Shown here piece by piece: positions 37,901 to 43,900 of a DNA stretch of 64,000 nt. Made by a program: the position numbers. How positions within the stretch are numbered: position 1 is the stretch's first letter; each line of letters begins with the position of its first letter. This stretch comes from Escherichia coli (GTDB taxonomy: Bacteria; Pseudomonadota; Gammaproteobacteria; Enterobacterales; Enterobacteriaceae). The stretch lies in NCBI RefSeq assembly GCF_030384885.1, contig NZ_CP128613.1. One strand, written 5' to 3'.

Positions 37901-40900
37901 TGCGCCTTTATGCATAATGAGAGCAAGGCACATCAAATAAAATAACGATAGGTCACAACAAAGAGGTTTTTATGAAAAAGCTTATCGTTTCAAGTGTATT
38001 GGCATTCATAACATTTTCTGCGCAGGCCGCAGCATTTCAGGTCACTAGTAATGAAATAAAAACAGGAGAGCAACTTACAACGTCTCATGTATTTTCTGGA
38101 TTTGGGTGTGAGGGGGGTAATACATCGCCCTCATTAACCTGGTCTGGTGCTCCAGAAGGCACCAAAAGCTTTGCCGTAACTGTGTATGATCCAGATGCGC
38201 CTACAGGCAGTGGATGGTGGCACTGGACGGTTGCTAATATTCCAGCAACGGTAACATATTTGCCCGCTGATGCAGGAAGACGTGATGGTACAAAACTTCC
38301 GACTGGTGCTGTCCAAGGCCGAAATGATTTTGGCTATGCAGGATTTGGTGGAGCATGTCCTCCCAAAGGAGATAAACCCCATCATTACCAGTTTAAAGTA
38401 TGGGCTCTAAAAACTGATAAGATTCCTGTAGATTCTAATTCCAGCGGAGCGTTAGTTGGTTATATGCTTAATGCCAATAAAATTGCAACCGCTGAGATAA
38501 CACCCGTTTATGAGGTAAAGTAGGATAAGAGTATGCTGGCAAAAGATAGGACTAACCTAAAGATTGAAGAAATACGGATGCATAAACATCATGAGATTCA
38601 CAGGGTTAAGCCTCTTATGCCAGCTTTATGTCGTATCCGTCAGGGAAAAAAAGTTATCAATTGGGAGACGCATAGTCTAACTGTTGATAATAATCAGATA
38701 ATATTATTTCCCTGTGGATATGAATTTTATATTGCGAATTACCCAGAAGCAGGTCTTTATCTTGCAGAAATGCTTTATTATCCCATTGATCTAATTGAAA
38801 AGTTCCAAAATCTTTATGCGATAACCGATCAAATTCGTAACACGACAGGTTTCTGCTTACCTCAGAATCCTGAGTTAATATATTGTTGGGAGCAACTAAA
38901 AACATCTATTTCCCGAGACTTCTCAACGCAAATTCAGGAACACTTAGCAATGGGCGTTCTACTTTCATTAGGAGCACATCATGTTAATTGTTTACTTTTA
39001 TCAGATAGTAAACAATCATTAATAAGTCGTTGTTATAACCTAATGCTATCCGAACCTGGAACAAAATGGACAGCAAACAAGGTAGCGAGATATCTCTACA
39101 TTTCTGTTTCCACATTGCATCGCCGTCTGGCAAGCGAGGGAGTAAGTTTTCAAAGTATATTGGACGACGTGAGGTTAAATAATGCGTTGTCTGCTATACA
39201 AACGACAGTAAAACCCATCAGCGAGATTGCCAGGGAAAATGGTTACAAGTGTCCTTCTCGTTTTACTGAAAGGTTCCATAATCGTTTTAAGATAACACCA
39301 AGAGAGCTAAGAAAAGCGTCCAGAGAGTAAAAGTATTTTATGAAGGAGCAACAGCATCGATTTTTATTTTGGAAAATAAATACGGCATACTCAACCTATT
39401 GGAGCCTGAACAATCCGGTGACTTCTGCGCTAATCGGGGACGTTTATAAGCACATATAATTGATACTATCTTCCTCCATCACAATTTCAGAAATGCACGT
39501 GTGATTTTTTTGCATCCGGCGTTTGGACTATGTGGAGTTCAAGAGTGGGAAAGTTACAAGAGGTTGAGGGGATAATTAAAGGGATGCTTATGACATTAGA
39601 TATCCGGATAGGTACGGATATCGTTGTTATTAAATCTAGTTTATACGTTAAGATGCAGCTACAGCAGAAATTACCACTGTTAATTTTTTCATCGTGAGCC
39701 CTTTTATTTGTACTATTATTTAAAAATGATGTCACTGCACTACAAATACTCATCTAATCAATGAGATTATTTCAAGATGTAAGTTTTAGTTTCTCATTTA
39801 AATTGTGAAGCAGATCCCTCCTTTTATCTGAACTGTTTCTATTGTACACAATGCATGACTATTTTGTGAACGAATATAAATTTGGTAGTCAAATTATATT
39901 AAAGGTTGTTATTTATGATTGACTCATAATTTATTTTTTTAATTTAAATAACCTAATAATAACCATGGAGATTATTTGCATGATATTTGTTTAGACTTGT
40001 TAATGTAATTGAGGTGATTTTATTTAATACGCAATATAGCGCCGCTTGATATTAGTTCTATTTTTTTTTGCGTAAGATAGATGAGACAAACTGAGACGCA
40101 TAATGGTTTGCAAGGCTCTAATACTTTGATGTTGAGGATGTGATGGGGCATGTACGTGCATAGTACAATGATGTCCATGCCGGTGTAGATAATCTCCAGG
40201 CTTATCCGGTGCGCCGTAAAACCCCGTCCTTCAGGGCGGGGATATAAGGCGCGGTTTTCCACCTGACCAGGTGTTTGCTGTTGTTCAATGTATTGGCGGA
40301 TGACGGACATTGGCGCACCTCCGCAGCTACTGGCAAAATTGCCAGGACTCCACAAAACGCCTTTGTAGTAATACCTGACTGTAATATCTGGTCGATCTCG
40401 TCGCAGTAACCTACCCGATACGCCTTTGAGGCTGTTTACCAGACTGGATATCGCCAGTTTGGGAGGATAGTTAATTAACAAATGGACGTGATCTGGTTCG
40501 CCATCCATTTCAACCAGTTCAGCTTCAAAATCAGCACATACATTTGAAAAGTAAGTGCGTAGTTTTTCTGTCGCGTCATGGTCAAAAATCTGGCGTCGGT
40601 ATTTGGTGACAAAGACCAGGTGAACATGCATCAGGAAAACACAATGCCTTCCACGCCGGATATCGGTTTCTTTTTTCACAGACCAAAGTATCATTTGACC
40701 TGTGAAACGATTACAGGCATTTAAATTCCAGTTAAGACCCGGTGGTCAACAGGAGTGTGAAATGAGGCGCTTCGCAGGCGCATGTCGTTTCGTTTTCAAT
40801 CGTGCTCTGGCGCTTCAGAATGAGAATCATAAGGCCGGTAAGAAATACATCCCTTACGGGAAAATGGCTTCCTGGCTGGTTGAGTGGAAAAATGCCACTG

Positions 40901-43900
40901 AAACGCAATGGCTTAAAGATTCGCCCTCACAGCCATTGCAACAGTCACTGAAAGACCTTGAGCGGGCTTACAAAAACTTCTTCCAGAAGCGGGCTGCTTT
41001 TCCCCGATTCAAAAAGCGGGGACAGAATGATGCATTCCACTACCCGCAGGGCGTTAAGCTCGATCAGGAAAACAGCCGTATTTTTCTGCCGAAACTTGGC
41101 TGGATGCGCTACCGGAATAGCCGTCAGGTCACGGGTGTTGTGAAAAATGTCACTGTCAGCCAGTCCTGCGGTAAGTGGTACATCAGTATTCAGACAGAAA
41201 GTGAAGTATCAACTCCGGTTCATCCTTCAGCATCAATGGTCGGGCTGGATGCTGGCGTGGCTAAACTCGCCACGCTGTCAGATGGCACAGTCTTTAAGCC
41301 TGTAAACAGTTTTCAGAAAAACCAGAAGACGCTGGCGAGACTTCAGCGACAGTTAAGCCGCAAGGTCGAATTCAGCAATAACTGGCAGAAGCAGAAACGC
41401 AAAATACAGCGACTGCATTCCCGTATCGCAAATATCCACAGGGACTACCTTCACAAAGTCACAACGACCGTCAGCAAAAACCACGCAATGATAGTCATTG
41501 AGGATTTGAAGGTCAGCAACATGTCAAAGTCAGCAGCGGGTACGGTCAGCCAGCCGGGGCGCAATGTCCGGGCAAAATCAGGTTTAAACCGTTCGATACT
41601 GGATCAGGGCTGGTATGAAATGCGCCGCCAGCTTGAGTACAAGCAGCTCTGGCGTGGCGGTCAGGTGCTTGCTGTTCCGCCAGCGTACACAAGCCAGCGT
41701 TGCGCGTGCTGTGGTCATACAGCGAAAGAAAATCGCCTGTCACAAAGTAAATTCAGATGCCAGGTATGTGGATATACAGCGAACGCCGATGTAAACGGCG
41801 CTCGTAACATTTTAGCGGCGGGGCACGCCGTTCTTGCCTGTGGAGAGATGGTGCAGTCAGGCCGCCCGTTGAAGCAGGAACCCACCGAAATGATTCAGGC
41901 GACAGCCTGAACGTAGCAGGGATCCACGTCCTTCAGGGCGTGGAGGATGTCAACAAACAGGTTGAATTAACTCCGCGCCCTGGTTTTTGACATTACCCAC
42001 CGCGCGCGACACAGGGTGCCAGGTGAACTGGTTTGCTGGAACACAGCCACTGGCAGCAATTTCAGAGGCTTCTTTACCGCTAATCTCTTGCCGCATCCAT
42101 TCCCGCGCAGCTTCTGGCGACAGTACCAGCGGGCGGCGGTCATGAATATCTACCAGACCCTGGTCTGCTGCTGCAGTGACAATTAAAAATCCTTCGGCTT
42201 CGTCACCACGCTCAAACGGTGTGCTACCTATCGCGGCTATAAAAACAGGTTGTCCATCAGCGCGATAGATAAAATAAGGCTGTTTTTTGTCGCCTTCTTT
42301 TTTCCACTCAAACCAGCCATCGGCAAAACAGATTGCCCGACCATGTTGCCAGAGCGGTTTAAACATACGACTGGTTGCCGCAGTTTCTACGCGGGCGTTA
42401 ATCAGCGGCGGTTTATCCCACCATCCGGGAGCATATCCCCAGAAAACCGGATCCAGATGAAGGTGTTCATCACGTTCACTGAGCAGAAGAACTTTGGTTC
42501 CCGGCGCGACGTTGTATCTGCCAATAGGTTCGGGATCGTAGGGAATATCGCGTTCAATATCTTCCGCGAGAAGCGCAAGGTAATCTTCACGCGTTTGGGA
42601 TTGGGTAAAGCGTCCACACATAGCAACCTCCTGAGATCATACTGAAAAGAATAGGAGAGGGGGCGGGTAAAATCTATGTGATACAGAGGTAACGATGTTC
42701 CCGCTGTTGGCCACAGCGGGAATGAGGGATTACTTCTGAATTAAATAACGAATGGTCGGCCCGTCTTGCTGAATATCCAGCACCGTATAGCCGTGATTAC
42801 GCGCATCCAGTGGAATATTATTGATCGACTGCGGACAGTCGCTCACCACTTCCAGGATCTCACCTTTTTTTAACTGCGGCATCGCCTCAAGGGTTGCAAC
42901 TGCCGGATAAGGGCAGGGTTCACCCACCATATCAAGGCGGTAATCAGGAACGATATTTTTCATGCGATCTCCTTGGCTGTCTGCGGTGCCGCACGGCGGA
43001 AGAAGCGTTTTTCCCAGCCGATAATCAACATCAGCGCAGCAAACAGCAGCAAATATGTCACCAGCAGGCCACCCATCGGACCAAAGGTTTTCAGTAGGTT
43101 GATTTTGTCCCAGTCGGTGGCCAGCGCCGGAGCGAAATCATCCCAGTAATACGCCAGAATCGTTGAGCCGATCACATTGCCCAGACCGACCCACCAGTAG
43201 TGCACCTGGCCTTCTACCGCGCGGTACATCCAGCCGGTTTCGCAGCCGCCTGCCAGCACGATGCCAAATCCAAACAGCAAACCACCAATTACCGCGTTTG
43301 GACCTGCCCACATGATTTTGGGTTCAACGCCTAACTGTACGTAACTGAAGATCCCGATGGCACTTACCGCCATACCGATAATAATTGCTTTCGCCATGTG
43401 GGTACGTCCGGTGATCCACATATCGCGGAACGCCGAAGTAAAGCAGATTTGCGCACGTTCAATCAGTAAACCAAAGCCGACGCCAAACAGCATTGCCAGC
43501 CCCAGTTTTGGTTGGTTCATCGCCGTCAGTAGCGCCCAGCCCAGCATGCCGAAAAAGACCAGCATCCCGAGACGAAAACGACGCCGCGCCTGATCCGGTT
43601 TTTGCGTCAGCGGTGAGGCGGCAGAAACTTTCTGCATTTTCACGGGAATACGGAAGATGGGCAGCAGGGTAAAGCGCGCGCCAAACCATGAACCAATGGC
43701 AGTGGCGATGGCAAAGAACCAGGCATGCAGCGAGAACTGAGGAATGCCGGTAAAGAACGCCGCCAGGTTACAGCCCATTGCCAGACGCGCGCCAAAACCG
43801 GCGATAATGCCGCCAATGATGGCCTGCATAATGCGGATACGGCTGCGCGGCATGCGTAGTTTGACATTGTTGGCCCACAGCGCTGCAGCAAAGCAGCCGC

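Follow-up and report, generated by a model that had tools for sequence, protein, structure and literature searches.

We analyzed a 64,000-nucleotide (nt) stretch of the Escherichia coli contig NZ_CP128613.1 (strain 2013C-4282, matched at 100%), referred to as the window, with a focus on a transposable element to which a preliminary description of this DNA had drawn attention. The element is the known insertion sequence (IS) IS609, which belongs to the IS605 type of the IS200/IS605 family; it is ordinary and already annotated, and its novelty is small. Very probably, a single IS609 copy sits 3′ of a TTAT next to the downstream end of yedK and carries an intact TnpB as well as a right-end guide-RNA module, which together would work by the RNA-guided mechanism proposed below.

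IS609 is inserted at a TTAT downstream of yedK

The element and its target site are the following.

40206-41953, plus strand: IS609, CCGGTGCGCC...GGAGGATGTCAA, 1,748 bp; similarity to copies elsewhere starts and stops at these positions, and IS609 of E. coli K-12 has the same length and ends.
40202-40205, plus strand: TTAT target site and predicted transposon-associated motif (TAM), outside the element and without duplication.

On this stretch, RefSeq annotates tnpA ("IS200/IS605 family transposase," a pseudogene), insQ ("RNA-guided endonuclease InsQ/TnpB family protein," 402 amino acids [aa]), and yedK. The preliminary description had recognized an IS605-type element with divergent tnpA and tnpB genes, and this identification was borne out. 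In K-12, the feature annotated "insertion sequence:IS609" agrees with the window copy in length, ends, and gene order, and its tnpB is 97.8% identical to that of the window copy, differing at 26 of 1,209 positions. The extent had been given as 40150-41950; an element is present there, but its limits are 40206 and 41953, since 40150-40201 is flanking DNA and 40202-40205 is the target TTAT.

To place the ends, 10 copies from chromosomes and plasmids of E. coli, E. albertii, Klebsiella, Pantoea, and Tatumella were compared. In these unrelated contexts, the copies share a left end that reads CCGG... directly after TTAT or TTAC and a right end that reads ...GTCAA, and the sequence outside diverges. 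TTAT or TTAC was directly 5′ of the left end in every copy examined. At the other end, 57 related loci yielded 44 distinct right ends, in all of which the dodecamer GGAGGATGTCAA was invariant, with flanks that diverge immediately beyond it. As a probe for empty sites, the left flank, up to and including TTAT, was fused to the right flank, and E. coli genomes were searched with the resulting sequence. An uninterrupted empty site was found in 456 genomes at 97-98% identity, and the occupied yedK junction was found in 667. In strain E7-1N7, for example, the empty site reads ...GGCTTAT followed directly by CAAACAGG... (the longer stretch is ...CCAGGCTTATCAAACAGG...). Together, the shared ends and the contiguous empty site define the element as 40206-41953, inserted without target duplication. 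Members of the IS200/IS605 family insert in just this manner, behind a specific tetranucleotide and without duplicating the target site. The yedK insertion site is polymorphic in E. coli, which shows past mobility only. A survey of the genome, which the preliminary description had proposed, revealed a single copy of IS609.

TnpB is intact and evolutionarily constrained

40702-41910, plus strand: tnpB (insQ), intact, GTG start, 402 aa, WP_000826391.1; identified as an open reading frame (ORF), in RefSeq, by its ISDra2 match, and by NCBIfam.

The 402-aa product had been described as a homologue of RNA-guided nucleases with RuvC-like segments and a C-terminal zinc finger, a proposal that was to fall if the RuvC triad proved absent on alignment. 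The triad is intact: D183, E267, and D363 align with the matching motifs of ISDra2 TnpB, and the CxxC...CxxC zinc finger is located at C334/C337 and C353/C356. The protein scored 382.8 bits with the NCBIfam model guided_TnpB (NF040570; cut-off, 100), which places it in the TnpB family, and ISDra2 TnpB structures (8h1j and 8bf8/8exa) matched residues 3-376 with an E value of 9.7e-54. These matches support its prediction as an RNA-guided nuclease homologue. In the literature on the activity of the IS609, insQ, or ydcM TnpB, we found one screen, in which an IS609-type TnpB was purified as a candidate RNA-guided nuclease, without a detailed result (PMC12781874).

The ratio of nonsynonymous to synonymous substitution rates (dN/dS) of tnpB was 0.28 in comparison to K-12, 0.18 in comparison to 94%-identical plasmid copies, and 0.09 in comparison to 80%-identical relatives. 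The differences from K-12 comprise 13 synonymous and 13 nonsynonymous changes, and the probability of at least 13 synonymous changes among 26 under neutrality is 0.0017. Judged by these substitution patterns, tnpB is under purifying selection.

A covarying RNA structure spans the tnpB 3′ end and the right end

For structure prediction, the final 160 nt of the element were aligned for 29 relatives. The predicted omega (right-end) RNA scaffold and its helices are as follows.

41807..41953, plus strand: predicted omega RNA scaffold, about 147 nt, from the consensus fold and pair counts in 29 relatives.
41807-12/41945-50, plus strand: P0, from the consensus fold.
41815-20/41826-31, plus strand: P1, from the consensus fold.
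41837-41/41874-78, plus strand: P2, from the consensus fold.
41845-52/41861-67, plus strand: P3, from the consensus fold.
41885-41920, plus strand: P4, from the consensus fold.
41923-31/41936-44, plus strand: P5, from the consensus fold; this is the TnpA-type hairpin.

The scaffold consists of the final ~105 nt of tnpB plus the right end. Its consensus fold has 44 pairs in the six helices P0-P5, and 98.0% of the alignment cells at these positions are paired. Changes on both sides of a pair occurred in 8 pairs and 49 cells, compared to 3.4 pairs and 13.7 cells in shuffled alignments, and none of 500 shuffles reached either value. When the partners were moved by 1-3 columns as a control, only 41-48% of the cells could pair and at most 6 cells changed on both sides. 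At the pair 41820:41826, for example, 15 of the 29 sequences have G-C and 13 have A-U, although both positions are third codon positions of tnpB; at 41890:41914, A-U and G-C are found in 14 sequences each. The covariation is present in P1, P3, and P4, well inside the element end and within coding sequence, and thus the pattern cannot be explained by the TnpA hairpin P5.

Additional measurements pointed in the same direction. The single-sequence fold of the scaffold had a z score of -3.1, and a covariance model of the IS609 RNA gave one full match in the window, with 187 bits. The synonymous substitution rate (dS) of tnpB was 0.36-0.41 in the 3′ overlap and 1.28-1.42 upstream of it, showing that synonymous sites evolve ~3.5-fold slower in the overlap. 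In agreement with this, third-position identity among 23 genes rose from ~0.66 to 0.81-0.91 over the last 130 nt, where first and second positions were slightly less conserved. In TnpB systems, a structured scaffold covers the 3′ part of tnpB together with the right end and variable flanking DNA comes next, and IS609 shows this arrangement. Based on these sequence patterns, the conserved folded module should act as a guide RNA.

The preliminary description had expected a guide RNA at the right end and had named the lack of any structured RNA there as grounds for giving up the idea. The covarying 44-pair fold, the slow synonymous sites, and the resemblance to TnpB-linked Rfam families described below argue for the predicted guide RNA. 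The scaffold had been placed at about 41750-41945; a structured RNA is indeed found at the right end, but the conserved span is ~41807-41953.

One part of the fold has an alternative. In 29 of 29 sequences, the G(G/A)CA of the P1 loop (41822-25) could pair with UGUC at positions -6..-3 relative to the guide. The resulting candidate pseudoknot competes with P0, and each of the two is 100% compatible with the 29 sequences. No choice can be made between them because the 3′ tail never varies.

Several relatives carry the RNA module in reduced or distant contexts. Five loci (L058, L064, L066, L067, and L056) keep only the last 34-100 tnpB codons, yet match the 160-nt RNA model over its full length (116-178 bits). 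Among them, L067, from Arsenophonus, is a miniature derivative in which the left end is fused to the 3′ part. On L064 and L066, no left-end lead or hairpin motif was found, and homology starts near the predicted scaffold start (codon ~369). Further, weak matches to the IS609 RNA model lie just downstream of distant tnpB genes (29-32% identity) at L053 1488-1580 (E value, 0.009) and L055 2381-2420 (E value, 0.15). The latter covers only the P2/P3 (RAGATH-18-like) module, which hints at wide sharing of this module.

The right-end RNA resembles known TnpB-linked RNAs

A comparison with RNA covariance models, suggested in the preliminary description, yielded best matches that are all TnpB-linked, but none of them reached its threshold. 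Three Rfam families had their best window matches at the IS609 right end, all on the plus strand: HgcC (RF00062) at 41847-41966 (E value, 0.05; 21.9 bits versus a gathering score of 50), sot0042 (RF02656) at 41783-41944 (E value, 0.07; 18.9 versus 88 bits), and RAGATH-18 (RF03064) at 41837-41880 (E value, 0.13; 25.4 versus 44.9 bits). Thus, the IS609 RNA resembles HgcC, sot0042, and RAGATH-18 and belongs to none of these curated families. Two matches to C/D-box snoRNA families (E values, 2.5-4.5) were set aside as chance.

The archaeal HgcC has in common with IS609 a hairpin with a UUCA loop and a GAGGAnGUCA tail, and the sub-threshold alignment spans the IS609 hairpin and tail. The archaeal sot0042 overlaps the tnpB 3′ end, as does the IS609 scaffold. 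With RAGATH-18, the shared sequence is CCUGUGGAG...GAUGAAGCAGGAA, which corresponds to P2/P3 of IS609. According to one study, HgcC and sot RNAs are transcripts overlapping tnpB 3′ ends and contain a hairpin with a UUCA tetraloop, and a sense transcript over a tnpB 3′ end was reported there from E. coli K-12 RNA sequencing data (PMC4615843). UUCA is also the loop of the IS609 right-end hairpin. RAGATH-18 was shown experimentally to be the conserved core of the IS607 TnpB guide RNA (PMC11061315).

Proposed guide and mechanism

41954..41969, plus strand: predicted 16-nt guide CAAACAGGTTGAATTA, in the flank and antisense to the yedK 3′ end; proposed because it lies just beyond the conserved right end and by analogy with ISDra2.

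By this analogy, we infer that the RNA is made, bound by TnpB, and guides cleavage at a TTAT TAM. In the proposed mechanism, the 3′ end of the tnpB transcript and the right end (~41807-41953) would fold into the scaffold, and the omega RNA would be released from the tnpB transcript by cleavage, as in ISDra2 and related elements (PMC8612924; bioRxiv 10.1101/2023.03.14.532601; PMC10278001). The scaffold would bind TnpB, and the next ~16 nt of flank, from position 41954, would serve as the guide; the 3′ end of the RNA is expected at ~41969-41973, and not directly after 41945 as first proposed. The complex could then cut TTAT-CAAACAGGTTGAATTA, which is present at the yedK site vacated by excision and in strains without the element, and the DNA break would favor recombinational re-installation of IS609. 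The occupied site would escape cutting, since the guide match there is preceded by TCAA instead of TTAT. The earlier proposal that the RNA continues into the flank as a guide is consistent with the variable flank after the invariant right end, but the predicted guide starts at 41954 and not at about 41945.

Subterminal hairpins match the IS608 model of target recognition

40218..40241, plus strand: left-end module, with guide AAAA (40218-40221) and imperfect hairpin CCCCGTCC-TTCA-GGGCGGGG (40222-40241).
41920..41953, plus strand: right-end module, with guide GGAT (41920-41923), hairpin CCACGTCC-TTCA-GGGCGTGG (41924-41943), and invariant tail AGGATGTCAA.

In this family, as established for IS608, movement is carried out by a Y1 HUH transposase, TnpA, which acts on single-stranded DNA and recognizes two subterminal hairpins. 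TnpA locates the cleavage sites (TTAT at the left and TCAA at the right) through guide tetranucleotides just 5′ of each hairpin. In the window, near-identical hairpins had been noticed at 40222-40241 (CCCCGTCCTTCAGGGCGGGG) and 41924-41943 (CCACGTCCTTCAGGGCGTGG), both on the plus strand, and we found them as described. They agree at 18 of 20 positions, and the bases at the remaining two differ in a mutually complementary way. The hairpin motif had exactly these two matches in the 64 kb, compared to 0.00 expected from 100 shuffles. Same-strand subterminal imperfect hairpins at both ends, without terminal inverted repeats, are typical of the IS605 type. The right-end cleavage site TCAA (41950-41953) forms the end of the invariant tail.

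Among the related loci, the left-end guide tracks the target, as it does in the IS605 type. AAAA was found with TTAT in 12 loci (the window and 11 others) and AAAG with TTAC in 7 (L003, L005, L012, L019, L022, L038, and L047), with two exceptions (L011 and L004). The two groups of loci are natural retargeting variants. In the relatives, G(A/G)AT precedes the right-end hairpin, and the element closes with TCAA. This covariation of guide and target fits the IS608 model, in which the cleavage sites would be recognized through base pairing.

The transposase gene is degenerate

40266..40694, minus strand: tnpA (Y1 HUH transposase), degenerate; RefSeq pseudogene ("missing C-terminus"), also identified by NCBIfam and by alignment with intact relatives.

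A divergent ORF starting at 40694 on the minus strand is present, as the preliminary description had it, but the gene is not intact. Its product scored 143.4 bits with the NCBIfam model transpos_IS200 (cut-off, 55), as expected for a Y1 HUH transposase, and alignment with intact relatives showed that the HUH motif (HVH) and the catalytic Tyr (in RQYIEQQ) are retained. In the intact relatives, TnpA has 138-143 aa and ends with ...EQQQTP(S/G), with a start corresponding to position 40679 and a stop corresponding to 40263-40265. In the window copy, as in K-12, the family stop codon TAG at 40263-40265 is changed to CAG; the family start codon ATG at 40677-40679 is changed to GTG, and a Tyr is replaced by Asn in the conserved WSPSYF (SPSYF) motif. 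Due to the lost stop, the frame runs through the left-end hairpin, leaves the element, and reaches 40020. The resulting 224-aa minus-strand ORF (40020..40694) is spurious and was ruled out as a longer transposase.

Between the window and K-12, tnpA has no synonymous and six nonsynonymous differences, plus a nonsense codon in K-12. The lack of synonymous changes among six has a probability of 0.21 under neutrality and of 0.0003 at a dN/dS of 0.1, the constraint between intact copies. Compared with the 13 synonymous changes among 26 in tnpB, this shows tnpA to be decaying while tnpB is still constrained. Since tnpA is degenerate, this copy is probably incapable of autonomous movement; given the kept HUH motif and catalytic Tyr, some residual TnpA activity may exist.

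Conserved -10-like boxes lie between the divergent genes

40689..40694, plus strand: TATCAT, a -10-like box that precedes the tnpB start by 7 nt; proposed from conservation among relatives.

The two start codons had been described as only 7 bp apart. This holds for the literal ORF starts (ATG at 40694 and GTG at 40702), but 22 bp separate the tnpB start from the homologous start of tnpA. It had also been proposed that the promoters must lie inside the opposing genes. However, the spacer itself contains a conserved -10-like box: among the clade members listed, 19 of 22 have TATAAT exactly 7 nt before the tnpB start, so that both box and spacing are conserved. The 7-nt spacer between the box and the start is variable and contains no Shine-Dalgarno sequence. 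The opposite strand has a TATACT-like box of its own, which overlaps the first and precedes the family tnpA start by 7 nt. We take this as a sign of two overlapping, divergently oriented -10 boxes that would give rise to leaderless mRNAs, with only the -35 regions located inside the opposing genes. Consensus promoter scans of the window and of an intact relative detected no promoter-like site at the divergent starts, with counts at chance level, and therefore the proposal of -10 boxes rests on conservation only. Expression of the window copy would be weakened by its TATCAT, which replaces the family TATAAT, and by the GTG codons at which both genes start.

Apart from its 3′ end, tnpB shows raised third-codon-position conservation in two further segments, 41422-41511 (0.82) and 40702-40791 (0.79), compared to ~0.66. 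A promoter-like match on the minus strand (41516-41488) overlaps the first, and the second is where the -35 region of tnpA would fall.

Weighing of the evidence and alternative explanations

Several points weigh against an RNA-guided TnpB system at this locus. An Rfam search of the window at a permissive threshold detected no family at its gathering score. P5 is also required as DNA by TnpA, and thus covariation there would alone be no argument for an RNA. P0 and the alternative pseudoknot are each supported by compatibility only. We infer TTAT as the TAM from the target sites. Finally, tnpB has a GTG start, TATCAT for TATAAT, and no Shine-Dalgarno sequence; if the mRNA is leaderless, translation from GUG would be poor, and TnpB may be present at a very low level.

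One alternative explanation is that this copy is an inert fossil, in which neither gene is usefully expressed and the RNA structure and the tnpB ORF persist only because the copy is young. In favor of a fossil are the pseudogenized tnpA, which has lost stop and ATG and shows only nonsynonymous differences from K-12, the two GTG starts and the weakened -10 box, and the presence of one copy in the genome with one full RNA-model match in the window. However, over the same divergence, tnpB accumulated equal numbers of synonymous and nonsynonymous changes, against neutrality, and its ORF and all catalytic residues are intact. Moreover, the lineage with the altered tnpA is found at different sites (yedK here and ydcL/ydcO in K-12), and the yedK site is occupied in 667 and empty in 456 genomes; the lineage has therefore been mobile or repeatedly lost. 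We consider the fossil explanation unlikely.

It is very unlikely, in our view, that the right-end structure serves TnpA as a single-stranded DNA hairpin and the tnpB mRNA as a 3′ stabilizer or terminator, instead of being a guide RNA. In its favor, P5 is a TnpA-type subterminal hairpin with a near-twin at the left end, and no variation is seen in the tail or in P0, the helix that closes the structure. Yet the covariation in P1, P3, and P4 is located 30-140 nt inside the end, in coding sequence, and has no left-end counterpart. In addition, no T-run follows the right-end hairpin, a terminator scan found nothing at the right end, P2/P3 resembles the experimentally established guide-RNA core RAGATH-18, and the relatives that retain only the last 34-100 tnpB codons match the RNA model end to end.

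Co-option of TnpB as a nuclease-dead, TldR-like RNA-guided regulator of yedK or a neighboring gene, which the decay of tnpA beside a kept tnpB and the guide segment antisense to the yedK 3′ end could recall, is hardly credible and was ruled out by the intact RuvC triad (the zinc finger is intact as well) and the unconserved guide region, the sequence after the right end being different at every insertion site, as in a transposon guide and not in a fixed regulatory guide; furthermore, the insertion is absent from many E. coli strains.

We retain the reading that IS609 carries an RNA-guided TnpB and its guide-RNA module. A wider and rather doubtful extension of it is that TnpB and the omega RNA of chromosomal E. 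coli IS609, which stay under purifying selection while tnpA decays, persist alone, whether through some benefit for the host or as a module for homing or against loss, on which transposases of plasmid-borne IS609 copies act in trans. In this extension, both genes of the family may also be transcribed as leaderless mRNAs from the overlapping back-to-back -10 boxes in the 22-bp spacer, which would couple and limit their expression. Little at this locus is new: IS609 is catalogued, and how TnpB works with its omega RNA has been established in close relatives. What is gained is an exact map of this copy, with its ends, the TTAT as the predicted TAM, the covariation-supported scaffold at 41807-41953, and the predicted guide from 41954. 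The natural empty site could serve as a cleavage substrate, and the question of why tnpB outlives tnpA could conveniently be addressed with the E. coli TnpB, which, judging by the searchable literature, has been little studied.

Surroundings of the insertion

The gene yedK (41950-42621, minus strand) takes its stop codon from the IS right end, with TGA located inside the element (41950-41953). At the occupied site, the YedK C terminus reads ...QPVC followed by the stop (TGT TGA), and at the empty site it reads ...QPV followed by the stop (TGA, made up of the last T of TTAT and CA of the flank). Because of the IS-supplied stop, the insertion adds one Cys to YedK. The fliE-yedK interval of this strain contains emrE, ybcL (37972-38523), and ybcM (38533-39330) within ~37400-40201; in K-12, emrE-ybcL-ybcM are part of the DLP12 prophage region. 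After ybcM, ~870 bp of AT-rich DNA without an annotated gene adjoins the IS left end (to 40201).

Comparison with known elements

The closest known element is IS609 of K-12 (insQ b1432 and the pseudogene yncK; NC_000913.3 1503161-1504908). It shares with the window copy the length of 1,748 bp, the ends CCGG...GTCAA, the TTAT target, the divergent genes, the loss of the tnpA stop and ATG, and the GTG start of tnpB. The two copies are at different sites, between ydcL and ydcO in K-12 and at yedK in the window, and their tnpB genes differ at the 26 positions mentioned above. The K-12 tnpA has an internal stop, whereas the window tnpA has none but carries the Tyr-to-Asn change in SPSYF. The K-12 insQ product already bears the name of a putative RNA-guided DNA endonuclease.

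The TnpB of ISDra2 from Deinococcus radiodurans (PDB 8h1j and 8exa) aligns with the D-E-D triad and zinc finger of the IS609 TnpB. In both elements, the guide RNA, which in IS609 is a predicted one, covers the right end and the final part of tnpB, and a tetraloop hairpin lies ~20 nt before the guide, with the loop at -20..-17 in ISDra2 and at -22..-19 in IS609. The ISDra2 scaffold has 116 nt, four stems, and a pseudoknot of -5..-3 with the 5′-proximal segment -103..-105 (PMC10097598). The candidate pseudoknot of IS609 uses -6..-3, in parallel to -5..-3 in ISDra2, whose RNA was compared by its published description. The predicted scaffold of IS609 is longer (~147 nt), and its predicted TAM is TTAT instead of TTGAT. 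Activity was shown for the ISDra2 TnpB, whereas the IS609 TnpB is known here from sequence alone.

The values used for the comparison with IS608 from Helicobacter pylori are reportedly those of Barabas and colleagues from 2008. Like IS609, IS608 has same-strand subterminal imperfect hairpins and inserts 3′ of a tetranucleotide without duplication; both have the right cleavage site TCAA, a G(A/G)AT guide 5′ of the right hairpin, and a left guide complementary to the target. In IS608, tnpA and tnpB are co-directional, in contrast to the divergent genes of IS609. The target also differs: the lineage described here uses TTAT with an AAAA guide, whereas IS608, like some IS609 relatives, uses TTAC with an AAAG guide.

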